DNA from: Planctomycetota bacterium
GTDB lineage: Bacteria > Planctomycetota > UBA11346
Length of the DNA stretch: 62,025 nt
Reading direction: 5' to 3'
Assembly (NCBI GenBank): GCA_027859175.1
Contig: JAQIBG010000003.1
Location: 1 to 62,025, forward strand
Position 1 is the first letter of the stretch. The number at the start of each line of letters is the position of its first letter. Under the pieces are notes generated by a model. The model saw only the letters and a program-made list of their open reading frames with translations, was not told where the DNA came from and searched no databases. Both the position numbers and the translations under genes were made by a program. This document shows positions 5,162 to 22,577 of this stretch, piece by piece.

Positions 5162-5839
5162 TTACCCTTCGCCAGGACCTAGGATCGTCACCTGCAGAGC
5201 ACTTGTAATCATACCGATCTCGATCGCATGCCGGGTCAGACCCGCGATATCGTGGATGTCCAACTTGGCCATGAGGTGTTCACGATGCTTTTCGACCGTC
5301 TTGATGCTGATCGCAAGGCTGACCGCGATCGCCTTGTTGCCATGGCCTTCGGCGATCATCTGCAGCACCTCCCGCTCGCGCGTAGTCAAGCTAGCCATGG
5401 GTGTTCGGCGCATGCTCTCGGTACCCGGAGCCACTCGCCGCTCCTCGGCCATCGGCCTGATCCGTGATCGGCCGGCCAACGCATGGTGAATGGCTGCGCT
5501 CAGCTCTTCAACCGACGTCTGCTTCAATAGAAATCCAACAGCACCGGCAGCAATCGCCTGCTGAACGTAAGCGTCCTCGCCGTGGGCAGACAAGATCAGA
5601 ATCCGCGCCGCAGGCATGGCGGCCACGATCTGGCGCGTCGCCTCCAAACCGTTCAGCAGCGGCATCGCGATGTCCATAAGGACGACATCTGGGCGCAGAC
5701 TGATCGCGGCGGCAACGGCCGCGCGACCATCCCCCACCTCACCGATGACCTCGAAATCGGGATCGAGCCCGAGCAGTCTGCAAATGCCTTCGCGAACCAC
5801 GGCGTGGTCTTCAACCAAGAGGATCGAAATGGGTTTCAT
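5162..5839 (-). CDS. NarL/LuxR-family response regulator (REC + HTH)
   Basis: Starting from the internal ATG the product reads MKPISILLVEDHAVVREG...VVLMDIAMP (REC domain). The C-terminal part reads LTTREREVLQMIAEGHGNKAIAVSLAISIKTVEKHREHLMAKL (LuxR HTH). The ATG (5839..5837) overlaps the kinase stop codon as ATGA. Confidence 0.9.
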   Translation of the reverse strand: MKPISILLVEDHAVVREGICRLLGLDPDFEVIGEVGDGRAAVAAAISLRPDVVLMDIAMPLLNGLEATRQIVAAMPAARILILSAHGEDAYVQQAIAAGAVGFLLKQTSVEELSAAIHHALAGRSRIRPMAEERRVAPGTESMRRTPMASLTTREREVLQMIAEGHGNKAIAVSLAISIKTVEKHREHLMAKLDIHDIAGLTRHAIEIGMITSALQVTILGPGEG

Positions 5840-6993
5840 GGCTTGGCCCTGGGTGTGCGGTGTGCGGATAGCTTCACCACTGTGCCGGTCGCGACGGTAG
5901 CCGGGATGCCTGCAGACACCGTGGTGCCAAGCCCCCGCTTGGATTCGATGCCGAAGCACCCGCCGACCATCTCCAGACGCTCACGCATGCACAACAAGCC
6001 CAAGCGCCTGCTCTCGTTGCGCAGCGCGTGCCGAACCGAGAACGCTCGTCCGTCGTCTTGGATAGTCATGCTGAACCAGTCATCAAGGTGACGGATCTTG
6101 ACCTCAACCTTGCTGGCCTTGGCGTGGCGGGTGATGTTGGTCAAAGCCTCCTGAGCAACGCGAAACAGCACCGTTCGGCGGGTCATCCCCAGCTCCTCAA
6201 CGGAGGCACACACCGCCAGTCGAATGCGCAGCCCGGTACGGACGGTAATGTCATTCATCAGGTCTTTCAGTGCCGCAATCAAACCCAAGTCGTCAAGCAT
6301 CGCCGGCCGCAGCTCGCGAGCGAAGCGCTGCACGAAGGTCACCGACTCGGCCACCAGCTTCTGAGTCAGTGCGATGCTCTGGTCAAGGCTCTTGGCACTG
6401 CGCTCAGCCGTTGCCTTGAGGCTGGCAAGTTGAAGGTTGATGCTGGTTAAAGACTGGGCCATGACGTCGTGCAGCTCACGGCTGAGTTCCTTGCGCTCGT
6501 CCTCCTGCGCCAGCAGCATTCGGCGATACACTTCGCGCTGAGCCACCCCCAAACGCTCCGATTTCTCGCGGAGCTTGCGGTAGCGCTCGCGGCATGATTT
6601 CAGCGCACGCTCCGCCGCCTTGCGCGCACCGTTGTCACGGTCTTGGGCCTGCATTGATGTGGTCACCTGTTTACTTAGCGGGTCTCCCTTGAGCACCAAC
6701 TCGGCGACACGCCGGGCATCGCCGCCCCCAGAGCCAGCGCGCCGTCGTGGCACCATGGCGGCAGCGAGAAACAACACCGCGTGCTGCTTGGCCTTAAGCC
6801 GCTCCTTGCCTGATGGCATCCGCGCCATGACCTCGGCCAGGATCTGCTCGTGCGCCTGCACCAGCTTCAAGGCTGATAGCCCGGAACCGAGGCCGATGGC
6901 CGCCGAGATATCCGCATCCGCCCCAAGCCGCAGATGCTTAAGGAGCGCGTCACGATAACGCGGCAGTCGCAGACCCGGAAGAGCCTTCACCAT
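5836..6993 (-). CDS. Cytoplasmic HisKA_3-type sensor histidine kinase (no predicted TM segment; RsbU_N-like N-terminal domain)
   Basis: H-box EDERKELSRELHDVMAQSL (His codon at 6469..6471), followed by an HATPase_c region (QEALTNITRHAKAS ... DDGRAF ... GLLCMRERLEMVGG). No hydrophobic stretches are present. Confidence 0.85.
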   Translation of the reverse strand: MVKALPGLRLPRYRDALLKHLRLGADADISAAIGLGSGLSALKLVQAHEQILAEVMARMPSGKERLKAKQHAVLFLAAAMVPRRRAGSGGGDARRVAELVLKGDPLSKQVTTSMQAQDRDNGARKAAERALKSCRERYRKLREKSERLGVAQREVYRRMLLAQEDERKELSRELHDVMAQSLTSINLQLASLKATAERSAKSLDQSIALTQKLVAESVTFVQRFARELRPAMLDDLGLIAALKDLMNDITVRTGLRIRLAVCASVEELGMTRRTVLFRVAQEALTNITRHAKASKVEVKIRHLDDWFSMTIQDDGRAFSVRHALRNESRRLGLLCMRERLEMVGGCFGIESKRGLGTTVSAGIPATVATGTVVKLSAHRTPRAKP

Positions 6994-7508
6994 TTCTTCT
7001 CTGTGTCCGCAATACGCCGGGCTGCGGTCACCGATTGCTCGGCTTGGCGCCGCGTGCTGGCAATGTCATTAATCAGTTTCTCTGTGTCCACAGTAGCCTC
7101 CTGCTGCATGGCCGCCAACCGGACCCCGATGCCGAGTAACAGTTGCGCGATGTCATCATTCAACCACTGGCTGATATCGCGACGTTCCAACTCCTGGTCT
7201 ACCAGGATGCGGTAAGCAACGAGCTTCAGCTCACCACGGATTCTGATGGCATCAGCACTCAGCGGGGCCTGATGATCGTTCCCACCGTCAGCAAGCGGTG
7301 GGTCTTCCGCGCCGCTGGGCTCGCAGCGTGGCGGCCGTGAGCCTGGAATCTCAATTGAATCTACTGGCGCGGCATCGCGATTCGAGGTCTTTCCGACTTT
7401 GTCGATATCGCGCACATGCGGGGTCGCTTTTGAAGATCGCTTCATGGTACATCGCATCCGTCGCCTGGACCACAGGCCTCCTGGCCGCTCCGAAGGGGAT
7501 GACGACAT
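6987..7508 (-). CDS. DHp-only (HisKA_3-like) protein lacking the phospho-accepting His and the ATPase domain
   Basis: The C-terminal segment ELERRDISQWLNDDIAQLLLGIGVRLAAM aligns without gaps to the kinase segment EDERKELSRELHDVMAQSLTSINLQLASL. Asn (AAT, 7158..7160) sits at the His position. Its stop codon overlaps the kinase ATG (ATGGTGA). Third-position GC looks lower than in the neighbouring genes, so coding status is not certain. Confidence 0.55.
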   Translation of the reverse strand: MSSSPSERPGGLWSRRRMRCTMKRSSKATPHVRDIDKVGKTSNRDAAPVDSIEIPGSRPPRCEPSGAEDPPLADGGNDHQAPLSADAIRIRGELKLVAYRILVDQELERRDISQWLNDDIAQLLLGIGVRLAAMQQEATVDTEKLINDIASTRRQAEQSVTAARRIADTEKKW

Positions 7509-7657
7509 CCACCATCATCGGGCGTGCTGCGCCCAGCACGCATAGGGTATAGACCCCAGCATCCGACCCTGCGCGGATCGCTAAACTTGCCACCATGACG
7601 GTTCACAGCCGCGGCCACCCCGAAAGGCCGAAGGGCTGCATAGGGCAGGAGTTAGTC

Positions 7658-7777
7658 ATGATCAGTTTCGCTTCCCAAGCTGACCAGGGATACGTGATCG
7701 AACCCGCCCACACCCTGTCTGAACAACGCTCGTGTGACATCCACAACCTCCCCACCCATCACTATGAACGGAAATAA
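7658..7777 (+). CDS. Candidate 39-codon upstream ORF (MISFASQADQGYVIEPAHTLSEQRSCDIHNLPTHHYERK)
   Basis: AGGAG lies 6 nt upstream of the ATG at 7658. The TAA stop (7775..7777) ends 1 nt before the ATG of the DUF1328 gene. No recognisable family. Confidence 0.3.
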   Translation: MISFASQADQGYVIEPAHTLSEQRSCDIHNLPTHHYERK

Positions 7778-7778
7778 T

Positions 7779-7952
7779 ATGCTCTACTGGGCCTTCATCT
7801 TCTTCATCGTCGCCATCGTCGCCGGCATCTTTGGCTTCGGCGGCCTAGCCGACGACAGCGCGTACATCGCCAAGATCCTCGCCGTGGTCGGCATCTGTCT
7901 GGCGCTCATCTCCTTTCTGTTCCACACCAGGACCAGAAGGCGACGCGCCTGA
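7779..7952 (+). CDS. DUF1328 / UPF0391 small membrane protein
   Basis: MLYWAFIFFIVAIVAGIFGFGGLADDSAYIAKILAVVGICLALISFLF matches the remembered family pattern (MLRWALIFLVIALIAGVLGFGG.A..A..IAKILFF). Start taken at the internal ATG 7779. Confidence 0.7.
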   Translation: MLYWAFIFFIVAIVAGIFGFGGLADDSAYIAKILAVVGICLALISFLFHTRTRRRRA

Positions 7953-7976
7953 ATCGCTAGCTACGGCACGACCAAG

Positions 7977-8020
7977 CCCTGGAATCGGATCAACGATCAA
8001 GCGTCCATCCGATTCCAGGG
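7977..8020. terminator. Bidirectional hairpin between the convergent DUF1328 and dps genes
   Basis: Perfect 14-nt inverted repeat, ccctggaatcggat (7977..7990) and atccgattccaggg (8007..8020), with a 16-nt loop. There is no clear U-tract. Confidence 0.5.
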
Positions 8021-8076
8021 CCTTGCGTAGGGCCTTGCACACACAATACAGGGTCAACGGACCCGCGGCCCGGTGC

Positions 8077-8601
8077 TCAGTTCGGCGTCTCGGCGTGGGC
8101 AGAGACCATCCACAGCCACTTGCTGGTGTCGCGCGAGACGCCCGTGAAGAGGTCGGCCGTGTCTGGATCATCAAGGTCAAGCGCTTCATCAACCATGGTA
8201 CGAAGCTCATCGGCAAAAACAGTTAAGGCCTTGCAAACCGCATCAACATGGCTCGCGCCGTCGCGGATCGTGATCGGGTACTCCTTGAGACCAGACCATT
8301 GGGCCGCAACCCGGATGGTGCCCTCGGCGGTTCCACCGATTTGAACGATGCGCTCGGCGATCTGATCCACCGATGCCGCCACCGAGACCGAGACCCGATC
8401 GAAGAGCTCGTGCAGGCTAATAAAGGCGGGTCCTTTCACATTCCAATGGGCCTGCTTCATCTGCAGCTGCAAATCGATTGCGGTCGATAAGCGACGATTC
8501 ATCAGTGCGATGACCTGGATGTCATGGGACAGCTTCGGCTCGCTCGGCGCGACTTGATCAACGAGTACCGGGGCGGCCTGGGGGCTGGATGCGATTTTCA
8601 T
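8077..8601 (-). CDS. dps: Dps-family DNA-protection / ferritin-like protein
   Basis: From the internal ATG (8601) the product starts MKIASS. It contains LQMKQAHWNVKGPAFISLHELFD and a C-terminal DLFTGVSRDTSKWLWM, the typical Dps ferroxidase-site and helix pattern. Confidence 0.85.
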   Translation of the reverse strand: MKIASSPQAAPVLVDQVAPSEPKLSHDIQVIALMNRRLSTAIDLQLQMKQAHWNVKGPAFISLHELFDRVSVSVAASVDQIAERIVQIGGTAEGTIRVAAQWSGLKEYPITIRDGASHVDAVCKALTVFADELRTMVDEALDLDDPDTADLFTGVSRDTSKWLWMVSAHAETPN

Positions 8602-8726
8602 CCCCGAGACATACCGGAGACAAGCGACTAGGGGTATGGGGTGATAACCCCATCGAACGCGAGCGCGTCGTCGGCTACGCTGTGCGCTGAGCCCACGATC
8701 AGCGATCAGTACGGAAGGCCACACAC

Positions 8727-9654: not shown

Positions 9655-12150
9655 TCAGATCCGAGCCCGACGCAAGCGCAAGGCATTGCCGATAACCGAG
9701 ACCGAGCTAAACGACATGGCCGCCGCGGCGATCATGGGGTTGAGCAAGAGCCCGAAAACGGGGAACAGCACACCGGCAGCAATCGGAATACCCAAGGCGT
9801 TGTAGGCAAAAGCAAAAAACAGGTTCTGGCGAATATTGCGCATGGTGGCACGGCTCAGGCGGCGGGCGCGCACAATGCCGCGCAAATCGCCCTTTACCAA
9901 AGTCACCCCGGCCGACTGCATCGCCACATCGGTACCGGTGCCCATGGCGATGCCAACCTGGGCCTGAGCCAGCGCCGGAGAGTCATTGATGCCATCTCCG
10001 GCCATGGCGACCGTTCGCCCTTCCGCCTGGAGACGCTTAACCGCGTCGACCTTTTGTTCGGGTAACACATCGGCAATCACCTCATCGATGTCGAGTCGCG
10101 CAGCCACCGCTTCTGCCGTGCGGCGATTGTCACCAGTGAGCATCACCACCCGCAACCCTTCGTGGTGCAGGTCGCGCAGGGCCTCAGCACTGGTTTCCTT
10201 GATCGGATCAGACACCGCCACCACGCCGGCCGCGCGTCCGTCGGCGGCCACAAACATGGCGGTGGCCCCGTCATCACGCAGGCGGTCGGCAACCTGTTCC
10301 AGCGCCTCCACCGCAACGCCCTCTTGGTGCATCAAGGCAAGATTGCCGAAGACCACGCGAACACCGTCAACAATGCCGATGACCCCCTTGCCGGTCACCG
10401 AATCAAACTCTTCGGCATCAACCAGAGCCAATTCGCGCGCCTCGGCACCGCGCACAATCGCAGCGGCAAGTGGATGCTCGCTGGCTTTATCAAGGCTGGC
10501 TGCCAAGCGAAGCACCTCCTCCGCATCGAAACCCGAGCTCGGCTCCACCGCCGTCAACTCAGGATGGCCACGCGTAAGCGTTCCCGTTTTGTCAACCAGC
10601 AAGGTGTCAACCTGCCGCATCACCTCAATCGCCTCGGCGTTCCGGAACAAAATACCAAGCTTGGCCCCCTTGCCGGTCGCCACCATAATCGACATCGGCG
10701 TTGCCAGGCCAAGCGCACAAGGGCAGGCAATAATCAGCACGCCGATCGCATTGACGAGGGCGAAGGCCAGCGCTGGGGCAGGGCCAAACGCGGCCCATAC
10801 GCCGAAAGTGATCACTGCGCTCAACACCACCGCGGGCACAAACCACGCCGCCACACGGTCGGCTAGGCGTTGGATCGGCGCGCGACTGCGCTGAGCCTCG
10901 GCAACCATCTGTACGATCTGAGCCAATAAGGTCTCACCACCAACCTTGCGGGCTTCCATGACCAATCCGCCGGTGCCGTTGATCGTAGCCCCAACAACAT
11001 GGTCACCGGGTGCCTTATCGACCGGCATCGCCTCGCCGCTTATCATAGACTCGTCAACCGTGCTGGTCCCGGAGAGCACCTCGCCATCAACCGGAACCTT
11101 TTCACCAGGCCGCACACGCAGATGGTCGCCAACTCGCACCTGATCGAGCAGTACGTCTTCGTCTTCGCCATCGGGGGTAATCCGCCGCGCGGTTTTTGCC
11201 GCCAGTCCAAGCAAAGACCGGACAGCAGCTCCAGTCGCATTGCGGGCGCGCAACTCGAGAACCTGCCCCAATAACACCAAGCTGACGATGACCGCAGCGG
11301 CCTCAAAATACACGGCCGGTCGACCAGATTCCTGGCGAAACCCAGCCGGGAAGATCCCAGGCGCTAAAACCGCCACGAGGCTGTACAGGTAAGCGACGCC
11401 AACACCGATACCGATGAGCGTAAACATATTCAATTTCATGGTGCGCAGCGAGCGCCAACAGCGCACGAAAAACGGCCAAGCACCGTAAACCACTACGGGC
11501 GTGGCGAGCACTAATTCCAACCAAGCGGCAAGTCCGGCCCCAAGCCAATTGCGGACTGGATGCCCAATAAGCATGTCGCCCATGACGTAGATCACGATCG
11601 GTACCGTAAAGACAAGGCTTACCCAAAAACGCCGCCGCATGTTCAGATATTCTGGATCTGCCTTCTGATCGGCGTCAGGGCGGTGTGGCTGCAAGGCCAT
11701 CCCGCAGAGCGGGCAGTCACCTGGCTGTTCGCGTTCGACTTCCGGATGCATCGGACAGGTGTACGTGCTTGCTGGGCCCGCAACGGGCTCGGATGCCTCA
11801 AGGGCCATGCCGCACTCAGGACACGAACCAGGACCCGCCTCACGGACCGCCGGGTGCATCGGGCAGGTATAGACCGCGGCATCGCCACGCTGAACCGGTT
11901 CACCCCCACGCGGAGCCTGGTCATGCGAGCCGTGCTCACCATGACAACAACCACCCTCCTGGGCCTCAGGTGCCTTTGGGTCCGCTGGCGCTGCGTAGCG
12001 CTGGGGCTCTGCTTCAAAGCGCTTCTGGCACGCACTGCTGCAAAAGCGCCAGTGTCGGCCATCGTAGTCGACCTGATGCGCGTCCGCTTCTTCATCGACA
12101 ATCATGCCGCACACCGGATCACGCTGGCCTGCGTCGTTCTGCTTACCCAT
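9655..12150 (-). CDS. copA: Cu(I)/Ag(I)-translocating P1B-type ATPase with an N-terminal TRASH/YHS module and two CPMHP...CPxCGM metal-binding modules
   Basis: P-type ATPase motifs: CPC ([13 protein letters not shown]), [17 protein letters not shown] and TGES-like SGEAMPV. The N-terminus carries [60 protein letters not shown] and [18 protein letters not shown]. No classical GMTCxxC HMA domain is present. Start taken at the internal ATG 12150. Confidence 0.9.
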
Positions 12151-12325
12151 GTTCTCGACTCCTCGTCGCCATGTGTACGTCCAACCAGCCTTGGCTAGCG
12201 GTTCCGAGTTCCATGAGATGGCAACCAACTTCACACAGAACGCGATCCTATCGCAACGTCAGCGTCCGCCGGGCGGGGGCCGTAAAGAACCAAGCTCAGC
12301 ACGCAACACCAACAACCCTACTCCA

Positions 12326-13795
12326 TTACGAATGAGCTGTCGCCTCCTCAGATGCCTGATGCTCATGCTCGTGCTCATGCTCGTGCTCGTGCTCGTGCCC
12401 GTGCTCGTGCCCGTGCTCATGCCCCTCGGGTGGCGGCCCTCGCAGGCGGAAATAGACCAACTCCATCACCAACAAGCCAAGCATGATAGCCAGGGCAACC
12501 GCCAGAATTGCGGGATCCTGCTCGAACTTGACAAGCAGGAAGCCACTCAAGACCAAGGCATCAAGACCGATCGCCGTCCAGAGAATCGCCGCACGCGGCT
12601 GCAACTCCTGTCGGAGATGCCGCCACACGCCCCAGTGCAACGCAATATCCATAGTAAGATAGAAAATAATGCCAAGAGCGGCAATTCGCGACAGGTCAAA
12701 AAAGGCCGTCAAAACCAGACCAAGCACAACCGTGTAGACGAGAGTGTGCTGTTGGATGTCACCTGGCATGCGAAAGTGGCTATGTGGCACCAATCGCATC
12801 TCGGTCAACATCGCCAACATGCGAGAGACCGCAAAGATACTTGCCAGCAGTCCTCCTGCCGTGGCCGTCATCGCCAGAATGACGGTAAACCACACGCCAA
12901 CATCACCGAGCACTGGCCGGGCAGCCGCAGCGAGCGCATAGTCACGTTTGGCGACTATCTCATCCAGCGACAGATTAACCACGACGGCAGCCCCAACCAA
13001 TCCATAGATCACGATACACAAGGCAATCGCGATGATAATTGCCCGACCAACATTGCGACGCGGATCAACGATCTCTGAACCACTATTGGTAATTGTGGTA
13101 AACCCTTTGAAAGCAAGAATACCAAGTGCTGTCGCGCCCAAGAACCCAGCTATCGACATGTCGCCCTCAGGACTAACAGTCGGAATGGCGCCCGACCACG
13201 ATTCAGCGAGTGTCAGGCCGACAATGGCAAATACCGCGATACCAACAACTTTGATCACGCCTAGAGACCCAGCGACACGACCAATCCACTTGGTCCCTGC
13301 CAGATTGACTGCAAACACTAGCAATATCAGGCCAACGCCAAGGCCAGGCACCAAGTAGCCGGCTGCGTCGCCAGCTCCCGGCCACAATTGCACGGCATAG
13401 GAGCCGAAGGTTCGCGCCAGGAAGCTTTGCGCAATCACCATAGAACTGTACATGAGCAGCGCATGAAAAGCGGTCGTCACGCTTGGGCCGTAGGCCTTCT
13501 CGAGAAACATCCCGATGCCACCAGCCGACGGGAACTTATGTGACAATAAGACATAAGAATAGGCGCTGAAACCAACAACGATTGCGGCAACCAGGAAAGC
13601 CACAGGGAACAAGGCCCCGGTCATGCCGGCCATCTGCCCAGTCAGGGCAAAAATACCGGCACCAATCATCACCCCAGTCCCTAGCCATACCGAGCCTGCC
13701 AGGGACAGCGAACCTTCGGCGTAGTCAGGGCTCTTGTTTTCCGCATTAGATTTCATCTGAGCTTTCACCTTCTTGTTGTCAACTGAGCCAAGCAT
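12326..13795 (-). CDS. APC-superfamily amino-acid/polyamine permease with a C-terminal (His-Glu/His-Gly)n tail
   Basis: About 12 hydrophobic segments. The N-terminal part, LSLAGSVWLGTGVMIGAGIFALTGQMAG, is typical of APC permeases. The tail reads PEGHEHGHEHGHEHEHEHEHEHEHQASEE. Confidence 0.85.
   Translation of the reverse strand: MLGSVDNKKVKAQMKSNAENKSPDYAEGSLSLAGSVWLGTGVMIGAGIFALTGQMAGMTGALFPVAFLVAAIVVGFSAYSYVLLSHKFPSAGGIGMFLEKAYGPSVTTAFHALLMYSSMVIAQSFLARTFGSYAVQLWPGAGDAAGYLVPGLGVGLILLVFAVNLAGTKWIGRVAGSLGVIKVVGIAVFAIVGLTLAESWSGAIPTVSPEGDMSIAGFLGATALGILAFKGFTTITNSGSEIVDPRRNVGRAIIIAIALCIVIYGLVGAAVVVNLSLDEIVAKRDYALAAAARPVLGDVGVWFTVILAMTATAGGLLASIFAVSRMLAMLTEMRLVPHSHFRMPGDIQQHTLVYTVVLGLVLTAFFDLSRIAALGIIFYLTMDIALHWGVWRHLRQELQPRAAILWTAIGLDALVLSGFLLVKFEQDPAILAVALAIMLGLLVMELVYFRLRGPPPEGHEHGHEHGHEHEHEHEHEHEHQASEEATAHS
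12359..12424. repeat. Hexanucleotide microsatellite, 11 units of (a/g)tgc(t/c)c, encoding the His-Glu/His-Gly tail
   Basis: Read directly from the sequence: atgctc atgctc gtgctc atgctc gtgctc gtgctc gtgccc gtgctc gtgccc gtgctc atgccc. Confidence 0.9.
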
Positions 13796-14015
13796 GCCGA
13801 AACACTCGACACCGCAGTCGGCCTATTCATCCGGGGTACTCCCAAGGCACCCTCAAGTGCCACCCCAACTCCTGCCGGAACGGTCATATCGCTCAGCTTT
13901 AACTATGTCACCGACGCCTGGATACTTCACCATAGTGTAGCCGTGCAGATCCATATGCGGGCGCGTTTTCAACTGACTCCGACAGGTCCGGGGCAAGCAT
14001 TCAAAGTAACGCCTG

Positions 14016-14897
14016 CTAAGGCAGGAAATAGTCACCTCCATAAATCAGTGATCCCCCGAAATGCCCAGCGATGGCAACCAGCACCGCCGTTGCGGAAACA
14101 GTCCAAAGCCATCCACGTGGCCGCGCAGGGCTGATGAGGCTACGACCAACGAAAATGCTGGATGCGAGCGCTAGGACGGCAACGGACGTCCCTGCCATTT
14201 GATGAGTCAACAGGATAGTCTCATTGCCAGGGTAGCTCGCTGAGGTCCACGTGGCCCAGCCAAACAGAGTCGCGATAAGCGCACTTGCGGTACCAACGTG
14301 GGTGCATACGAGTGCTGCATTGAGCACCCCCGTCACGGCCGGACGAACGACATGGACCCAGGCTAAGCCTGCTGCAAGCATCAACAAAGCCACAGGGAAG
14401 TGCACCAAAACAATATGAAACCGACCCAAGTAGGCTATCACGGCCCACACTCCGCTCTGTCCCCGATGGGTATCATGATCGTGAGAATCCTGCTCTGTAT
14501 GGTCGTCAGATCCTTCCCCTGCTTGATCGTCAGTGTCGTCAACCGACTTCACCCCTTCAATAGCGGCCCCTGGTTTCGCCTCATGACGGTCGCTATTCGC
14601 AGCATCGTCATGCGCGTGAACCGGCTCAGATTGAGCAGCCACTTGCTGGAGCTGCCAAGCACGCACATAGCGCGACGGGGCCTTCCTGAAGTCTCTTACG
14701 CAACCCCGACAGCAAACGCCATAAACAACACCGTCGTGCGTGACACTCAGCCCCGGAACAACCATTTCGTCAGTCGTCACAATACACATCTCATTTCCAG
14801 CTGACTCAACGACCGAGGCCGGAGCACTTGGAGCGAGCAGCACGACAAGAAGCAGTAACAAGAACTTCACGGATCCCCCCCTGCCAGTACGGCGCAT
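14016..14897 (-). CDS. Membrane protein: signal/anchor + TRASH/YHS-like module + His/Asp-rich linker + DUF2231-like 4-TM domain
   Basis: TRASH-like segment CIVTTDEMVVPGLSVTHDGVVYGVCCRGCVRDFRKAPSRY. Linker HAHDDAANSDRHE...GSDDHTEQDSHDHDTH. Membrane part FHIVLVHFPVALLMLA, followed by three more TM segments. Start taken at ATG 14897 (MRRTGRGGSVKFLLLLLVV). Confidence 0.65.
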   Translation of the reverse strand: MRRTGRGGSVKFLLLLLVVLLAPSAPASVVESAGNEMCIVTTDEMVVPGLSVTHDGVVYGVCCRGCVRDFRKAPSRYVRAWQLQQVAAQSEPVHAHDDAANSDRHEAKPGAAIEGVKSVDDTDDQAGEGSDDHTEQDSHDHDTHRGQSGVWAVIAYLGRFHIVLVHFPVALLMLAAGLAWVHVVRPAVTGVLNAALVCTHVGTASALIATLFGWATWTSASYPGNETILLTHQMAGTSVAVLALASSIFVGRSLISPARPRGWLWTVSATAVLVAIAGHFGGSLIYGGDYFLP

Positions 14898-14985
14898 GGA
14901 ACTCGGACATCCCCATGCCACAGCAATCCCCTACATGGCGAAAGCTGCAAGCAGACATACGTTTCGACAATCATCGCAAAGCGCC

Positions 14986-17900
14986 TCACGTGATAACCTT
15001 CCGTTCGTCCCCCGGGACTTCACCGATGCGTTCAACATCATTCTCGTCTGCTGCGCCCGGGTAGGTTCTCGCATGAATGAGGTACCAAATCACTGGGTAA
15101 AGGACCAACTCCGCGATAAAGCTGGTCGCTAGGCCGCCGATCATCGGAGCGGCCAAACGGCGCATGGTATCGGCACCAGCCCCCGCGCCCCACATCAAGG
15201 GCAGCAAGCCAATCATTGTGGTACAGACGGTCATCGTCTTCGGCCGTATACGCTGTACGGCGCCGTCGTGGATTGCCCACCACAGATCATCACGCGTGAC
15301 AAGACGCCCAGCTTTAGCAAACTTCTTGCAGCTATCCTCTAGGTAATGGAGCATTACCAATCCGGTCTCAGCATCGAGGCCAGCCAGGGCGATAATGCCA
15401 ACAGCAACTGCAACTGAGAAATTGTAGTCGAGCAAGTACAGCAGCCATACGGCGCCAATGGCACTGAACGGAACGGCAAGTAACACTATGCCCGTTTGGA
15501 TCCAGCTCCTCGTGGCCATGTAAAGCAGTAGCACAATTACCATAAACGCCAATGGAACGGCTACCATCAGCTTTGCATTGGCCTCTTCCATATATTCAAA
15601 CTGCCCTGACCAAATGATGCTATATCCTGGCGGTAGGGCGACCTTGCGGGCAATAACATCCTTGGCCTGAGAAACGTAGCCACCCATGTCGCTGATGTGA
15701 GGAGTCACATAGAGCCAGGACGTCGGCCGCGCATTTTCACTCTTGATCATGGGCGGACCCTTGCGCTCTGTAATCACCGCCAACTGACCGAGAGGGACCT
15801 GGGTTCCACCCGGCGTGCGAACAAGCACCTCTTTCAGCTGCTCAAGGTCCTCACGCAGTTCACGTGGATAGCGCAAGTTGACCGGGTAACGCTCTAATCC
15901 CTCAACAGTCCAGGTAACGGTCATCCCACCCAATGCAGTCATGATATGCGCCTGAACGTCGGCAACATCCAAGCCATATCGCTGAATCGCTAACCGGTCG
16001 ATGGCGATGTTGGTGTAATTTCCACCCGTAGCACGATCGGCGGCCACCGATGCTGTAATTGGAGCGATACCAGGATCCGTCCGTAGGACATTTTCGATCT
16101 CTTTGGTTACACTGCTGAGGACCTCCAAATCTGGACCCATAATCTTGACGCCAACGGGCGTCTTGATCCCGGTCGCAAGCATGTCAATCCGAGTTCGAAT
16201 CGGCATGGCACCGCGCGTCAAGGCGCCTGTTAGGCCAGGAATGCGCAGTACTTCATTCACGCCAGGAACCCAGGTACCGTTTGGCAATGCGTACCCATCC
16301 GTCAATTCATCGATAGTAATTGGACGATTATATCTAATTAGCCCCCACAACCACGTATCCTCACGTTGACGCCACTTCGACTTGTCCCGTTCCAGCGCAA
16401 TCGTTGTTTCTATCATCGTAAGGGGTGCAGGATCAGTCGCACTATCGGCACGACCCGCCTTGCCCATAACGCTGGCGACCTCGGGAAACTGAACCAGCAG
16501 CTTATCTGTCTGCTGAAGCAACTCCTTAGCCTTGGTGACCGACAAGCCGGGGTCGGTGTTCGGCATGTACAGGAAGTCACCTTCCTCAAGTGGCGGCATG
16601 AACTCAGAGCCAATTCGCGATGCCGGATACCATGTAACTGCAAACAAGACGACAGAAATGAGAATGACCGCATAACGAAAGCGCATTGCCAGGGCAAAGA
16701 CTGGGTTGTAAAGGACCTGAAGCAATCGCGACGTTGGATTCCGATCTTCTGGCAGCAGCCGCTGCGGCACGATGAGAACCAACGACAGAACTACCCAACT
16801 GATCGCCAATACCCCACGGTAAGAAGCCAAGCCAGCCATAGGAACAGAAAGAATCACCAGCGCTGGTAAAATGCTGATGGCGCCGGTGATGGCCCACGCC
16901 TTTCCGCGAGACCACGCCAGGGGGAGACTTCGCTCTGTTATAAACAAGCTCATTGCCACCGGGATCAGCGTAATTGAAAGAACCGCCGCAACACCCATCG
17001 CGAAGGTCTTCGTATAAGCCAATGGCGCGAACATGCGCCCGCTCTGTCCAGTCAAAACAAAGACCGGTATAAAACTAACCGTAATAATCAGCAAACTGAA
17101 GAACAGCGTCGGTCCAACTTCAGCAGCAGCATCAGCGATGACCGCCGAATTTGAGCGTTGAGGCGCACCCGCCGCGACGGCCTGCTTCTCTCGCTCCAGC
17201 GCATTATGGGCGTTCTCTACCATGATGATTGCAGAGTCCACCATAACACCGATGGCGATCGCTATGCCCCCTAGGCTCATAATATTGGCATTGATGCCCA
17301 GGACATGCATAAGGATCAAAGATCCGAGTACCCCCGTTGGCAACACCAATGCGGCAACAAGCGCGGACCGAGCATGAAGCAAAAACACAAGGACAATCAA
17401 CGAAACAACGAGAATCTCCTCAATCAACGTTCCCGTGAGCGTATGCACGGCACGGTTTATGAGGCCTGATCGGTCATAGGCCGTTACAACATCCACACCC
17501 GGTGGGAGCCCACCTTTGAGTTCGCCAAGGCGGGTCTTTACGCGCTCGATTGTTCGAAGCGCATTCTCGCCAAAACGCATCACAACAATCCCGCCAACGG
17601 TTTCGCCCTCGCCGTTCAACTCGGCAACACCACGGCGAATTTCGGGGCCGAGATTAACTGAGGCTACATCCCCAAGCGTGACGGGTTCTCCAGCAGATGT
17701 CACCTTGAGCGCGATCTTTTCCAGGTCAGAGATAACTCGCCGCCGGGACTCAGCAACAGCATCGATGCCGTCGCGGGCCGCCTCTTCAATCATCGCGTCG
17801 GTCAGTGTGCCCAAATAGCCTTGCCCAACGATCATGAACTCGGTCTCTGCTTGCTCAAGCAAGCGCCCGCCCACGTCTTGATTGCTTCTCTTGATAGCAT

Positions 17901-18807
17901 CCCTGATCTTGCCGAGGCTCAGGTCGTGCGCTTGCAACCGCACTGGGTCCACGGTCACCTGGTACTGCCTGATCATGCCGCCAACCGCAGCGATCTCACT
18001 GACGCCCTCGACGGTCGTGAGTTCATAACGCAGATACCAGTCCTGAATGCTCCGCAAATCTGCCAACGAAAGGTCTGGTCGCACCAAAGGCTGGCCACTC
18101 AACGGACACCGCGTTAGCGGCTTCCCGCCACTTTTCAGGTGCTCCCTCAATTGAAGATGTGCACGACGTACCTCAGGAGCCAAAGCCGGGTCCGGGTAGC
18201 TCTCGCCCGACTCGGGATCCAGCCATCGACGATAGGGCTCGGGGAATACTCGATGGTGCACCAAACGCCCCAACTGATCAGCGTCGACCGCCTCATCTGG
18301 AGATGCATACCAGGCATTCGTAGCCGGATCATGCCACAACCCTTCTGGGTGATCAGGGCAATAGGCACCCGTCGTCAGCATGTATTGGTAAACCCATCCG
18401 ACACCGGTCGCATCTGGCCCAAGCTGTGGCGACACGCCAGACGGCAAGCGTCCCGCAACAGTGCTTAACTGCTCCAGTACACGTGACCGCGCCCAATACA
18501 TATCAGTGCCGTCTTCAAAGATAATGTAGACGAAGCTCGACCCAAACATGCTGAAACCACGCACATTCTTGGTTTTGGGCACAGCTAGCATGGCGGTGGT
18601 GAGCGGATAGGTAACCTGATCCTCAATAATGCGTGGTGCCTGACCTGGGAACTCAGTGCGAATGATGACCTGCACATCCGACAAATCAGGAATCGCATCT
18701 ACTGTGATGGCCCGGGTGGTCCACAAGCCCCCGGCCACCAAAACCAGGGTCAGGAGAAGGACCATGAATCTATTGTTGATGCAGCCTCGAATGATCGCCG
18801 TAATCAT
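14986..18807 (-). CDS. cusA: CusA-type (monovalent Cu/Ag) HME-RND inner-membrane pump, unusually long (1273 aa)
   Basis: Colinear with E. coli CusA. The TM4 signature [24 protein letters not shown] (17212..17277) is the Cu/Ag type (E. coli: [24 protein letters not shown]). Extra segments are described in the findings. Confidence 0.9.
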   Translation of the reverse strand: [1273 protein letters not shown]

Positions 18808-18811
18808 GATT

Positions 18812-21157
18812 CTACTTGACCTCTACTTCAATGAGACCCTCTGCGGTAGCCTTCCAAGATTCCATCGCGCAACCTGCCATCCCATGGCCGGCGCCAAAAT
18901 AGGGGTTCCTTATCGGCCCTGCCTCGCCCTGAAGCCAAACCCCCTTTTCAGGGACATCCCGAGCCATACCGCATCGATAGAAATTCACTCCATCAAAGGC
19001 GCCAGAACCAGCAGCAGCCGCATCGCGAACGGCAACCAAAACATGGCCAAATGCCACCCGTGCAGACTGCAGGTCAGAAGCCAAACTGATAGCATGGGCC
19101 TGATGCATGGCTGCCACCCAATTCACCCCAAGATCCTCCAGTGCCGTTTTCAGTTCTTTCCCAGCGGTTCTTGACTGCTCAAGATCATTCGCATACAGGG
19201 CCCGCTGCAGTGCCAGAACCATCTCGACGTGTTCAGGCTCAATTGAAATCAGCGCGCCAGTGCTCTGTTTTGCTGTGCCATCATCGGCCTCGTCCGAAGG
19301 CGCTTGTCTCTCACGCTCAGTGTCCGCCTGACCTGCCTTTGGAAGTGCCCATACCTCGGCCGCACAACTACGCATCTCTGACGAAGCGCCGTAATAGGGA
19401 TTACGCACATCATCCCCACGCTGCAGCCAGACGCCGCCCCTGGGAACACCCTCCGCCATACCACATCGCATTCCAACCACCGCACTCGCAAGCCCACTTG
19501 GCTGCCCAAACACTTTGAGCAAGCCGTTCATTGTGATGCTCAGATCTCCAAACCCAACACGCAGCGCCGGCATTGCATGGATGTTCAGCGCAACAGCCTG
19601 AGACTGTAAGGACGCGACATCTGGATATTTGTGGTGAAAGTGCTGATCTGCCTGTGTGCCAATGTCAACGAACTCTGCAACCGAGGCATGAAGGCTTGCA
19701 ACAGCCTCGCCAGTCATGCTGCCATCACCGTCATACAAGACCTCTTGAAGCGCCAGGTAACTGCGCACCACTTTCGCCCATGCCTCTTGTGCACCCCCGG
19801 GCAATTCAATTAGCGATCCCGCCTGCGGGGCCGGAGCCGGGGCCTGCTCTGTCGCCAGATCGCCCTTCATGATTTTCGCCAGAGCCTCACGCATCTTGCT
19901 CTCGCTATCGAGCAAGAACTGTCCGGAAGTAACGACCTGTTCGCCGGCCGTAATACCGTCCTGAATTGCAATGCGGCCATCTGATCCCTTCGGACCAAGC
20001 GTGACATCGCGAGGCTCAAATTTACCTCGCCCCAAACTTACGAAGACCACATTGCGAGAGCCTGTTCCGATAACAGACTCAGCAGGCACGGTGACTGCCT
20101 GGGCTGCTCGCAGTGATGGCATGAAGACCGTAGCAAACATACCTGGCTTAAGCACTGGGCCTTGCGGGCCATCCGCGTTCTCGAATACAAAGCGCACGCG
20201 CACCTCGCGAGTCTGCTGGTCAACTGCAGGGTATATACGCTCGATGCGCCCACTAAATTCGCGGCGTGCTCCGTAATCCATGCGCACCTGGGCTGTCTGC
20301 CCCAACGAGATGAAGGGTAACTGCTGTTCGTAAATGGTCGCCTCAACCCATACGCTGCCGAGGGCAACCAGTCTATAGGCTACGGTATTGGGCATTATCT
20401 GACTGCCCTGGTTAATATTCTTAGTCCAAACAACGCCGCTTACGGGTGATCGTATGGTCACGGTATCAGTGGCCGTTCCATCGCTCTGTAAACGAGACAG
20501 TTCCTCTGGAGGAAGTGCCATCAGCTTGAGTCGCTGCTCTGCCGCATCGAGCAGTTGTTCTTTGTGGGCGCTTTCGATGGCCTGGCTCGCAATGAGCCAC
20601 TCGCGTTCCGCTGTCAGCACCTGAGGCGCGTAAATACGAAAGAGCGGATCTCCTGCAGCAACGCGTGTCCATTTGGCATCTACATACATCTCCTCTATCC
20701 ACCCACCAAAGCGCTGGACGATGTCCGTAACCTGAGACTCATCGATTGTCACGGTGCCAACGGTTCGAACATCCCGAATGATGTCGCCGATCCGTGCCTC
20801 TGCGATACGCACGCCCATGTTCTGAACGATCACCGGGTCAATACTGATCTCCCCGGCAAAACGGTCGGGGTCAACCGGAGTCAGATCCATCCCGCAAATG
20901 GGACACTGACCCGGTTCAGGCTGAATGATCCAGGGGTGCATCTGGCTTATATACCACGTTCCAGACGCAGCCTTTTCTTCAACAGCAGCAGCCCGGTGCG
21001 AGTCGGCCCACGATTTGACCACAGGGCCGATCGCCACTCCTACGGTCATGGCTATTAGCGCAATGACCGCACAGATGACGATGATACGAAGTGATGGGCC
21101 ACGCGGCGGCTTACCACTATGGGTAGTCGGCGCAGAGGATGGGTTTCTTTCGGACAT
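18812..21157 (-). CDS. cusB: CusB-type periplasmic adaptor with an N-terminal metal-binding module and a 348-aa C-terminal extension (two DUF3347-like modules)
   Basis: N-terminal module WYISQMHPWIIQPEPGQCPICGMDLTPV (20873..20956). The barrel-sandwich/beta-barrel core extends to ...SGQFLLDSESKMREA. The extension spans 18815..19858. Start taken at ATG 21157 (MSERNP.. then a TM anchor), 13 nt after the cusC stop codon. Confidence 0.85.
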   Translation of the reverse strand: MSERNPSSAPTTHSGKPPRGPSLRIIVICAVIALIAMTVGVAIGPVVKSWADSHRAAAVEEKAASGTWYISQMHPWIIQPEPGQCPICGMDLTPVDPDRFAGEISIDPVIVQNMGVRIAEARIGDIIRDVRTVGTVTIDESQVTDIVQRFGGWIEEMYVDAKWTRVAAGDPLFRIYAPQVLTAEREWLIASQAIESAHKEQLLDAAEQRLKLMALPPEELSRLQSDGTATDTVTIRSPVSGVVWTKNINQGSQIMPNTVAYRLVALGSVWVEATIYEQQLPFISLGQTAQVRMDYGARREFSGRIERIYPAVDQQTREVRVRFVFENADGPQGPVLKPGMFATVFMPSLRAAQAVTVPAESVIGTGSRNVVFVSLGRGKFEPRDVTLGPKGSDGRIAIQDGITAGEQVVTSGQFLLDSESKMREALAKIMKGDLATEQAPAPAPQAGSLIELPGGAQEAWAKVVRSYLALQEVLYDGDGSMTGEAVASLHASVAEFVDIGTQADQHFHHKYPDVASLQSQAVALNIHAMPALRVGFGDLSITMNGLLKVFGQPSGLASAVVGMRCGMAEGVPRGGVWLQRGDDVRNPYYGASSEMRSCAAEVWALPKAGQADTERERQAPSDEADDGTAKQSTGALISIEPEHVEMVLALQRALYANDLEQSRTAGKELKTALEDLGVNWVAAMHQAHAISLASDLQSARVAFGHVLVAVRDAAAAGSGAFDGVNFYRCGMARDVPEKGVWLQGEAGPIRNPYFGAGHGMAGCAMESWKATAEGLIEVEVK

Positions 21158-21170
21158 ATTTGGCCCGTTC

Positions 21171-22577
21171 CTATTCAAGTTCACGGAGTTGCTGAATTGC
21201 ACTGCTGATAACGCCTGCTGACTGTAGGATGCGGGCTTCCGCGACACCGGCATCACGAGTAAGTCGGACAATACTCATCTCTAGCATCAGGAGCTGCTGT
21301 GCCGATTGAATGATGTCGGCGAAGCTACTTGTCCCCGCCATATAGTTGCTCGTTTCCGCTTGGTAGGCCTGCTTGGCCTGCTCAATCATCCCGCCGCGAA
21401 ACAATGCGAGTTGTTCATGGGCGCTTTCCCACCCGCTCAACGCGGTGCGCACATCACGCTTAAGGGTGTCTGAAATCGCCAGCCTCTCACTGGCCACCTC
21501 ATCACGAGCAGCTTCAGCCTCCCTGTCGCTGGCGCCATATGAGTCGAACCAAATTGGCAGACTCATGGAAGCCCCCACCCACCATTGATCCTGACCAGAG
21601 GTAGGCCCCATGAGGTTGCGGTCATCAACCATATTATAGTTGAAACTCAGGCCGAATTCTGGCCTGTGACGAGCTACTGCCATATTGCGGAGCGCGTCGG
21701 CTCGCTGCCGATTGGCAAGATTACCGAGAACGTCCGCGCGATACTGGCGGGCCAAAGGCAGCAATTGATCTTCTCTATATCGATTTTGAGATGGCAGCTT
21801 GTTGTGAATGTCTGGCAAAGGCTCTTCTTGTGGTAATGAGAGAGCTTGGCGCAGATTGGCCATGCTCGTTTGCGCTCGCTCATTCCAGGCCATCTGCATC
21901 GTTCGAAGTCGATCAATCTCAACGCCAATGCGCAAAACATCGCTTTGCTTTCCGCCCCCTACTTCAAGCCGTTGGAGAACCTGCTGTTGGAGTTGTGACA
22001 AAAGACTGATTTGCTCATCAACAATACTGTGACTGCGCGTAGCCGCCCTCCAACTCCACCATGCCTTACGAATTTCCGCAGCGATCTTGACTTGCTCAGC
22101 ATGCCAGGCTGCTTCCGCAGTACGGACATCGGCACGCGCCCGAGCCACTTGAGCACTCAAAAGACCTGGCGCCGGAAACTGCTGACTTACTCCCGCCATC
22201 AGCGCAACTTCACCGGCAGCCGTTTGTGCCATGTCACCGAATGGAGCCACCTGAATCTTCGGAGCGGGAAGACTGCCGGTGGCATCCACACGATGCGTCA
22301 TGCGATCGACGGCAATCGACTTGGCCTGCACCGCCGGATTGCGATCCAGCCCAAACAGAACCAACCCATCCAGATCAGTTGGTGCACGGTCCTGTTGGTG
22401 ATCATCATTCACCAGAGCGCTCGATGTCGGCGGGCCCTGCATGCGAGCGGTGCCCTCGGTCACCAAAGCCCGTTGCGAGTTTTCACTCTGAATCCTTCTC
22501 GCGCTCACCTCCCAAACCGGCGTACAAGCCGAAAAGAAGACTGCCAGGATGGCCGTGACCGTGACAGTAAAGCGCAT
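21171..22577 (-). CDS. cusC: TolC/CusC-family outer-membrane efflux protein
   Basis: 468 aa with a signal/lipoprotein-like N-terminus MRFTVTVTAILAVFFSAC. It has the two-repeat coiled-coil/beta-barrel OEP pattern and sits first of a cusCBA order. Confidence 0.8.
   Translation of the reverse strand: MRFTVTVTAILAVFFSACTPVWEVSARRIQSENSQRALVTEGTARMQGPPTSSALVNDDHQQDRAPTDLDGLVLFGLDRNPAVQAKSIAVDRMTHRVDATGSLPAPKIQVAPFGDMAQTAAGEVALMAGVSQQFPAPGLLSAQVARARADVRTAEAAWHAEQVKIAAEIRKAWWSWRAATRSHSIVDEQISLLSQLQQQVLQRLEVGGGKQSDVLRIGVEIDRLRTMQMAWNERAQTSMANLRQALSLPQEEPLPDIHNKLPSQNRYREDQLLPLARQYRADVLGNLANRQRADALRNMAVARHRPEFGLSFNYNMVDDRNLMGPTSGQDQWWVGASMSLPIWFDSYGASDREAEAARDEVASERLAISDTLKRDVRTALSGWESAHEQLALFRGGMIEQAKQAYQAETSNYMAGTSSFADIIQSAQQLLMLEMSIVRLTRDAGVAEARILQSAGVISSAIQQLRELE

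Follow-up and report, generated by a model that had tools for sequence, protein, structure and literature searches.

We analysed a stretch of DNA of 62,025 nucleotides (nt) from a saline-spring metagenome (assembly GCA_027859175.1, contig JAQIBG010000003.1; this whole stretch is hereafter the window), and report on a small gene that lies directly upstream of a sensor histidine kinase gene. It is well supported that this gene is the first of a translationally coupled operon of three genes, which encode a pseudo-kinase, a histidine kinase and a NarL-type response regulator, respectively. The small protein has the dimerisation and histidine-phosphotransfer (DHp) helices of the HisKA_3 class, and has neither the phospho-accepting His nor a catalytic, ATP-binding (CA) domain; judging from its sequence, phosphorylation at the canonical site is excluded, and the protein cannot be a kinase. 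It appears to belong to a large and undescribed family of pseudo-kinase genes, found mostly in Verrucomicrobiota. The most likely reading is that the protein would act by pairing with its co-translated kinase or with the NarL-type regulator. The relevant features are as follows, where positions are those of the window and (-) denotes the minus strand.

6987..7445 (-), stop codon included: pseudo-kinase gene, 152 amino acids (aa), HisKA_3 protein without CA domain or His, first in the operon (open reading frame (ORF), conserved MKRS start, gene-caller product P0001, and ratio of nonsynonymous to synonymous substitution rates (dN/dS))
7269..7445 (-): disordered N-terminal tail, residues 1-59, opening with the basic patch MKRSSK (AlphaFold2 predicted local distance difference test (pLDDT) of 51-67, no secondary structure)
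6990..7268 (-): stalk and DHp helical hairpin, residues 60-152, comprising helix 60-117, a turn and helix 121-151 (Pfam HisKA_3, AlphaFold2 pLDDT ~90)
7143..7160 (-): H-box core N-D-D-I-A-Q of the small protein (sequence read and family statistics)
7158..7160 (-): Asn (AAT) replacing the phospho-His (read from the sequence)
7155..7157 (-): Asp+1 of the DxxxQ motif (read from the sequence)
7143..7145 (-): Gln+5 of the DxxxQ motif (read from the sequence)
5836..6993 (-): partner sensor histidine kinase, with an RsbU_N-like N-terminal domain, a coiled coil, HisKA_3 with its His, and HATPase_c (Pfam and a hidden Markov model (HMM) of the N-terminal domain)
5162..5839 (-): NarL/GerE-type response regulator, Response_reg and GerE (Pfam)

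The stop codon of the small gene overlaps the kinase ATG at 6993 by 7 nt (aaATGGTGAagg). From this ATG the kinase has 385 aa. The gene caller instead puts the kinase start at GTG 6990 (384 aa), which leaves a 4-nt GTGA overlap, comparable to the ATGA and TTGA overlaps of relatives. At the second junction, the regulator ATG overlaps the kinase stop as ATGA. Since both junctions are stop/start overlaps, all three genes are predicted to be translationally coupled, and the preliminary description of this DNA, which had noted the 7-nt overlap and assigned the three genes to one operon, is upheld in this respect. Its ORF of 173 aa (6987..7508, (-)) is likewise present in the ORF list of the window. 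However, the start that it assumed, ATG 7508, is not the true one. The ATG at 7445 (MKRS...) is kept in the nucleotide alignment with two related metagenome contigs, L016 and L017, while a 2-nt indel just upstream of it puts the upstream DNA of the window and of these contigs in different frames. This combination rules out the start at 7508, and the product therefore has 152 aa, as does the gene-caller product.

The preliminary description had further proposed that the C-terminal part of the small protein aligns without gaps to the H-box helix of the kinase, that Asn takes the place of the phospho-accepting His, and that there is no ATP-binding domain. All three proposals agree with our results. 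By BLASTP, 26 of 71 residues are identical (37%) in an ungapped alignment centred on the H-box (E 1e-9), and the kinase His codon (CAC, 6469..6471) and the small gene's Asn codon (AAT, 7158..7160) were both read from the sequence. A comparison with the Pfam HisKA_3 profile (PF07730), which had been suggested as a check, gave 26.1 bits, where 24 is the gathering cut-off, and covered residues 108-168 of the 173-aa form and positions 1-61 of the 68 in the profile. The Pfam scan yielded no HATPase_c match to the small protein at E<=10, and the chain stops 56 residues past the H-site, i.e., the position of the phospho-accepting His, which is Asn96 in the 152-aa numbering. No conserved His was found anywhere in the helical part. 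Directly after the H-site there is a DxxxQ motif (N-D-D-I-A-Q), whose Gln is Gln101. Regarding the neighbouring genes, the scan matched the kinase to HisKA_3 and HATPase_c and the regulator to Response_reg and GerE, and the RsbU_N-like domain of the kinase was matched by the N-domain HMM at E 3e-10. This kinase is a cytoplasmic protein.

An AlphaFold2 model of the 152-aa form, made from an alignment of 55 sequences, leaves residues 1-59 unstructured (pLDDT 51-67), which accords with the disorder that had been supposed for the N-terminal part. The remainder is predicted as a 58-residue helix (60-117), a 3-residue turn and a 31-residue helix (121-151), with pLDDT ~90. The top fold matches in the PDB were to the DHp of DesK (3gie, 5iuj), with 27% identity over 86 columns and E ~2, which is not significant alone; a sequence search of the PDB with the small protein gave no match at E<=1. 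Basic N-termini are also found in the relatives with similarly short proteins on L016 and L026.

A word-indexed protein search retrieved the small protein alone, and its relatives surfaced with an exhaustive HMMER search. The latter identified a 68%-identical fragment (P0003), located on the two independent contigs L016 and L017, both of which carry an operon of small gene, kinase and regulator like that of the window. Relative to L016, dN/dS of the small gene is 0.22 overall, 0.125 in the DHp/helical part and 0.49 in the N-terminal part, in comparison to 0.23 for both the kinase and the regulator; synonymous change is saturated in this comparison. The sole large indel relative to L016, of 39 nt, is in frame and lies in the N-terminal part. 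A third lineage, represented by L026/L027, has a kinase that is 55% identical to the window kinase and a 137-aa gene of the same build as the small gene. The same operon is thus found in three independent lineages (window, L016/L017 and L026/L027), and the start and the stop/start overlap of the small gene are kept across all three. The H-site residue is Asn in the window and in L016/L017, and Lys in L026/L027. These comparisons, which bear out the conservation that the preliminary description had called for, lead us to conclude that the small gene is real and under purifying selection. The preliminary description had also raised the concern that the gene's third-position GC looked low. This difference is real, with 0.63 for the small gene and 0.55 for its disordered part versus 0.75 for the kinase and 0.71-0.75 for the neighbours, yet the gene is coding according to dN/dS.

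To characterise the wider family, we used the best 150 representatives (50%-identity clusters) of the exhaustive HMMER search, and regarded a protein as CA-less when it ends <=95 aa past the H-site. By this definition, 115 of the 150 representatives are CA-less. Their modal tails after the H-site are 56 and 59 aa and the family's DHp ends ~51-68 aa past this site, so that the 56-aa tail of the window protein has a modal value. The H-site of the 115 CA-less representatives is occupied by Gln (65), His (26), Arg (15), Asn (6) or Ser, Cys or Lys (1 each), whereas His is present in 22 of the 24 full-length kinases of the same list. His is thus lost in ~80% of CA-less members. Among the 26 short entries with His, ~5 are truncated real kinases and ~20 are true CA-less proteins that keep His, e.g., the complete protein on L020. 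These true His-keeping members (P0012/L020, P0005, P0026 and others) amount to ~20 of ~110 representatives. The partner kinase could phosphorylate these members in trans, and they may represent a stage in evolution at which the CA domain had been lost but the His had not.

The usual build of the family is an RsbU_N-type sensor-like domain, a coiled coil and the DHp. An RsbU_N-like N-terminal domain was found in 56 of 58 full-length non-His members, although matches to Pfam RsbU_N itself are weak (E 6e-5 to 0.04). The partner kinases carry such a domain too, as seen in precomputed PF08673 matches, which many of the >4180 homologues of the partner kinase have. The preliminary description had called the small protein DHp-only; this is true of the window protein, but is not typical of its family. 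When applied to the six-frame translated window, the N-domain HMM matched the kinase only, and the RsbU_N-like domain is undetectable in the small gene, which is therefore a short-form variant. In the window lineage, the RsbU_N-like domain has been swapped for a disordered basic tail, and trimmed members of this kind are known from three lineages. A stretch upstream of the gene (~7959-8033, 'ALRKALESDGRLIVDPIPGLGRAVA') was considered as a remnant of the lost domain and rejected: tblastn gave E 0.027, but the domain profile gave only E 3.9.

We accepted as true short forms only those of the window, L016/L017 and L026/L027. On the long-read contig L024, frameshift errors have apparently broken up pseudo-kinase and kinase, each of which appears as several short ORFs; short 'DHp-only' database entries can therefore be assembly artefacts. 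The 84-aa P0018 is an artefact of this kind, from L024, and P0022 is uninformative, as it sits on a contig of 588 nt.

The preliminary description had proposed a survey for such ORFs upstream of HisKA_3 kinases. A metagenome scan with the family alignment gave at least 600 pattern matches, at least 368 of them confirmed, and we analysed the best 80 loci. The protein is CA-less in 78 of these 80. Considering the 64 loci with at least 700 nt downstream, the next gene downstream on the same strand encodes a His-bearing HisKA_3 kinase in 62, and in 40 of those 62 the two genes overlap by 4 nt. The partner kinases fall into two size classes, of 373-394 aa and 550-569 aa. In searches that started from the kinase, the pair of pseudo-kinase and kinase recurs at L001-L003, L026, L028 and L029, while no pseudo-kinase partner was found for more distant kinases of Opitutae and Bryobacterales (L004, L005, L007, L008, L010, L013, L014). 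Named relatives of the kinase belong to Verrucomicrobiota, and the nearest in the genome collection are 39-51% identical to the window kinase. A search of the plasmid collection gave no match.

The source annotations of the pseudo-kinases ('signal transduction histidine kinase', 'DegS', 'histidine kinase') are misleading. There is no model for the family in NCBIfam, and we found no account of it in the literature, although journals outside the search could hold one. These results fit the earlier impression that no such family had been described.

Some loci depart from the common arrangement. At L021-L023, the pseudo-kinase (204 aa, with Gln) has an RsbU_N-like domain, and the overlapping kinase, of 254 aa, consists of DHp and CA domains without a sensor; the H-box of this kinase, ELH-LIAQ, is two residues short of the consensus ELHDVIAQ. 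Some Verrucomicrobiota operons have an extra gene between kinase and regulator (L001 2371-2910, L028 7164-7685), whose product of 173-179 aa has a signal-peptide-like N-terminus and no Pfam match; the window does not have this gene. At L018, the gene after an Asn-type pseudo-kinase (223 aa) is not its kinase but a CheB-CheR-PAS fusion gene (899 aa), beyond which come a PAS-HisKA_3 kinase and a regulator.

The small protein had been described as a paralogue of the adjacent kinase. This holds for the homology of the DHp, but the gene is not a simple copy of that kinase. On a profile built from CA-less paralogues of other organisms, the DHp of the small protein scores 82.9 bits, against 72.6 bits on a profile of full kinases (+10.3), whereas the DHp of the window kinase scores 71.0 and 90.7 bits, respectively (-19.7); the H-site residue itself supplies a few bits of these differences. 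Because the two proteins have opposite preferences, the duplication must be old and the gene belongs to the large family, and a recent local duplication of the neighbouring kinase's DHp is ruled out. Residues specific to the paralogues are also present in the small protein, namely an acidic residue at +2, Leu at +8 and 'IAST' in helix 2. On this evidence, we regard the window gene as an orthologue within the family, and not as a recent derivative of the kinase next to it.

Apart from the His, the H-box of the pseudo-kinases is as conserved as in true kinases. We calculated the following frequencies from the 69 non-His CA-less representatives, with positions counted from the H-site.

H-box -11: Glu, 0.97
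H-box -8: Arg, 0.99
H-box -4: Ser, 0.91
H-box -1: Leu, 0.99
H-box +1: Asp (Asn), 0.83 (0.14)
H-box +5: Gln, 0.99
H-box +7: Leu, 1.00
H-box +9: Gly, 0.88

The H-box of the window protein, Q-E-L-E-R-R-D-I-S-Q-W-L-N-D-D-I-A-Q, matches this pattern. In kinases, the residues N-terminal to the His probably face the catalytic domain. The second conserved element is the DxxxQ motif. Gln+5 is kept in 114 of the 115 CA-less representatives, and position +1 is Asp in 93 and Asn in a further 17 (110/115 in total); these counts are slightly inflated, as the representatives were picked by their likeness to a query that bears DxxxQ. Gln+5 is also kept in all six pairs that were found via the kinase alone. 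The retention of DxxxQ despite loss of the His was absent from the preliminary description, which had envisaged an antikinase that forms dead heterodimers with the kinase or sequesters the regulator. On the basis of the motif, a role in phosphatase activity or in regulator binding would be as plausible as poisoning of the kinase, and the antikinase mechanism should be taken as a proposal.

Our order of preference among explanations is a heterodimer with the kinase, then a separate homodimer acting as phosphatase or sink, then an activating or obligate partner and finally a functionless remnant. We tentatively favour the hypothesis that the kinase-dead DHp subunit pairs with the co-translated kinase, and thereby might shift the kinase/phosphatase balance. 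The hairpin of the small protein and the DHp of the kinase would form a four-helix bundle that holds one His and one catalytic domain. In NarX, which is also of the HisKA_3 class, trans-phosphorylation has been shown between H399Q and N509A subunits (PMC12931925). If this family behaves as NarX does, the catalytic domain of the kinase would face Asn and the kinase's His would have no partner catalytic domain, and the heterodimer would be kinase-silent. The silent heterodimer would still display two DxxxQ sites, and hence a surface competent for regulator binding and phosphatase activity. The net outcome would be that phosphorylation of the regulator is lowered or gated, which would set the kinase/phosphatase balance. 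In long forms, the pairing would depend on a signal, through the RsbU_N-like domain that both partners carry. For the short form in the window, this input would be gone, and the level would depend on dosage, which translational coupling fixes.

Several observations point towards such a complex. Stop/start overlaps are typical of subunits that are made together. The whole face of the H-box is kept, including parts that regulators do not contact, and most paralogues share an N-terminal domain and stalk with their kinases, both of which suggest pairing with the kinase. At L021-L023, where the sensor-like domain is on the pseudo-kinase only, a complex with the bare kinase is suggested. Moreover, the ~20 CA-less members that keep His make sense only if the catalytic domain of another protein phosphorylates them. 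There are precedents for DHp-mediated kinase heterodimers and pseudo-kinase partners, e.g., RetS-GacS (PMC8498467), HrrS-ChrS (PMC9491836) and RocA-CovS (PMC7028121).

It is important to consider the points that weigh against a heterodimer. It looks wasteful to couple a pure poison subunit to its target at 1:1 in translation, and kinase paralogues usually evolve away from heterodimerising. If autophosphorylation took place in cis, the heterodimer would be left half-active. Paralogue and kinase also differ systematically (Leu vs. Thr/Ala at +8, Leu vs. Ala at +15, Arg vs. His at +47), and these differences could mean that each forms a separate homodimer with its own partner. Lastly, the short form in the window is without the N-terminal dimerising domain that long forms and kinases have in common.

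A variant that we consider unlikely, though it deserves mention, is that the two proteins form an obligate, built-in asymmetric histidine kinase, made of a catalytic subunit and a pseudo-subunit, like the kinase/pseudokinase heterodimers of eukaryotes. In this arrangement, sensory input would be carried or tuned by the pseudo-subunit, which would also provide the phosphatase face, and the chemistry would fall to the single pair of His and CA domain.

The strongest rival of the kinase heterodimer, which we nevertheless judge rather improbable, is that the small protein forms a stand-alone DHp homodimer. Through its DxxxQ motif this homodimer would act as a phosphatase of the NarL-type regulator, or would sequester it; without a His, it could neither phosphorylate the regulator nor reclaim the phosphoryl group. 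The near-invariance of Gln+5 and Asp/Asn+1 in proteins that have mostly lost the His, and of Gln+5 in the six pairs found from the kinase side, is what this explanation would predict, allowing for the slight inflation by the query. The motif has the appropriate function in relatives: according to a paper that cites Huynh et al. 2010, NarX phosphatase activity needs DxxxQ (PMC3510030), and in the DesK:DesR complex the catalytic water is positioned by Gln193 of DesK, Arg84 of the regulator is the partner of Asp189, and His188 lies buried and plays no part in the phosphatase state (PMC5231405). As for the missing CA domain, an HK853 construct without it was reported to have phosphatase activity in vitro (PMC7005713); however, a pseudokinase that arose by a CA frameshift in the HisKA_3 kinase ChrS was phosphatase-deficient in vivo (PMC9491836). 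A second phosphatase also looks redundant when DxxxQ is already on the partner kinase, and regulator binding leaves the conserved H-box residues N-terminal to the His unexplained. The heterodimer and the phosphatase or sink both predict lower phosphorylation of the regulator, and they are not mutually exclusive.

We have greater doubts about a positive role, in which the small protein would be an allosteric partner that stimulates the kinase or recruits the regulator, as with DivL/CckA, RocA/CovS and the ChrS pseudokinase, or would form an obligate asymmetric heterodimer that autophosphorylates in cis. The near-universal pairing and coupling of the genes suit an obligate partner better than an inhibitor, the placement of the sensor-like domain at L021-L023 is consistent with such a partner, and known pseudo-kinases raise output instead of lowering it (PMC7028121, PMC9491836). 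However, trans-autophosphorylation as in NarX would silence the heterodimer (PMC12931925), and the short form in the window offers no sensor domain. Finally, it is very improbable that the gene is a decaying or untranslated, functionless remnant of a duplicated kinase gene: its reduced third-position GC, the poor conservation of its N-terminal third and the absence of a strong Shine-Dalgarno sequence before ATG 7445 would fit, but the low dN/dS of the DHp part at saturated synonymous change and the in-frame indel rule out a pseudogene or non-coding stretch, and with the start and overlap kept in three lineages, and a family of hundreds with a fixed C-terminal end, this explanation is largely refuted.

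Comparison with known systems helps to delimit the family. The small protein resembles sensor kinases of the HisKA_3 class (NarX, NarQ, DesK, LiaS, UhpB, DegS) in its homologous DHp, with a profile match above threshold and a helical hairpin, in its H-box (ExxR...S..L-x-D-x-x-x-Q) and in its operon with a NarL/GerE regulator, but it has Asn for the phospho-His and neither HATPase_c nor a sensor domain. With the pseudo-histidine kinases DivL (partner CckA), RocA (CovS), RetS (GacS) and a laboratory variant of ChrS (HrrS/ChrA), it would share a derivation from kinases and an action through protein contacts, without autophosphorylation. RetS acts through the DHp interface (PMC8498467), and RocA works without its His and, if overexpressed, also without its CA domain (PMC7028121). 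Unlike the small protein, DivL, RocA and RetS keep a CA-like domain in nature and belong to the HisKA family or other sub-types; each of them also stands alone instead of forming a gene family, and none is translationally coupled to its target. The ChrS frameshift variant is CA-less and of the HisKA_3 class, like the small protein, but it is of laboratory origin and still has its His (PMC9491836). The family reported here differs from these cases in being naturally CA-less, of the HisKA_3 class and large, with each gene welded to that of its partner.

Sda and KipI are small anti-kinases that bind the DHp region, and are not kinase fragments and have no phosphatase motif. The preliminary description drew an analogy with them, and this analogy stands as a functional likeness, in that the small protein could also lower autophosphorylation via the DHp region. 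It does not extend to sequence: in the Pfam scan at E<=10, the small protein matched HisKA_3 only, and so has no membership in the Sda or KipI families. In the HK1/HK2 split kinase of Mycobacterium tuberculosis and the phosphotransfer proteins Spo0B and ChpT, a DHp-like module is apart from the catalytic domain, and the relay needs its His. Hik36-Hik43 (PMC7656254) is another split kinase used for comparison. The resemblance is that a DHp or phosphotransfer module is encoded apart from the catalytic domain; the difference is that these systems need the His for phosphate relay, and the window protein has none in its helical part. The family members with a retained His (~18%) may function like split kinases or phosphotransfer proteins. 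With respect to the long forms, RsbT activates RsbU by way of the RsbU_N domain. Signalling proteins that act downstream of stressosome modules have been observed to carry RsbU_N-like domains (PMC9237108). By analogy, the RsbU_N-like domain suggests a partner-switching input for the long forms.

The genomic context gives an indication of what the system regulates. Stress-protein genes flank the operon, namely a DUF1328 gene (7779..7952, (+)) and Dps (8077..8601, (-)). Where the window has its divergent genes, L016, L017 and L026 have a DUF883/ElaB-like gene, to which L016/L017 add DUF2934, and the context at L028 and L029 comprises BON/OsmY, DUF883, Transgly_assoc, DUF5670 and DUF3309. Inferring from this gene neighbourhood, the system probably controls a stress regulon. 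A 39-aa ORF at 7656-7777 (+), MISFASQADQ..., begins where the DUF883/ElaB-like gene (MINPVSDTEH...) begins in L016, L017 and L026. As conservation there is confined to the start and the DNA upstream of it, the DUF883 gene has apparently been lost or replaced in the window. The DUF1328 gene (PRK13682), which encodes a small membrane protein, follows 1 nt past the stop of this ORF.

The 200-nt intergenic region upstream of the small gene is approximately as conserved as coding DNA. This divergent promoter region contains a conserved palindrome, GGGGTCTATACCCT (7544..7557, (-)), ~100 nt upstream of ATG 7445, which is the only exact match in the window. The palindrome is conserved as (A/T)GGGTTTACACCCCAT in L016, L017 and L026, and the L026 copy is part of a perfect hairpin of greater length. 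The GerE-type regulator may use the palindrome as an operator. A similar palindrome, GGGGTTATCACCCC (8638-8651, (-)), with two mismatches to the GGGGTCTATACCCT motif, precedes the Dps start (8601) by ~40 nt. The three matches to the motif in the window are not significant compared with the 1.85 expected by chance, but the position at the Dps promoter is suggestive. An Rfam search of the whole window gave no match, and a scan for promoters and terminators yielded nothing informative.

A metal-resistance cluster adjoins the locus (9655-21271, (-)). Its products include an 859-aa copper-type P-type ATPase, in which Cys-x-x-Cys motifs abound in the N-terminal region, and an AcrB/CusA-family pump that is unusually long at 1273 aa. 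A third product, of 819 aa, is a CusB-like membrane-fusion protein that contains a heavy-metal-binding domain. Sulfatase and Ser/Thr-kinase genes are also present in the window.

The usual view of histidine kinases is that of symmetric homodimers, and, to our knowledge, few pseudo-histidine kinases have been recognised, all of them isolated cases. The family described here is one in which the catalytic domain and the phospho-accepting His have repeatedly been removed, while the dimerisation helices, the phosphatase motif and the linkage to a kinase have been kept. It thus represents a natural experiment on the role of the DHp without kinase chemistry, on autophosphorylation in cis versus in trans, and on the genetic setting of the kinase/phosphatase balance. 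No form is smaller than the 152-aa version in the window, and in vitro work would be easiest with this version. If the view of an asymmetric kinase were true, the family would represent a widespread and unrecognised kind of two-component wiring in Verrucomicrobiota, and the DHp-only form in the window would be its minimal version.

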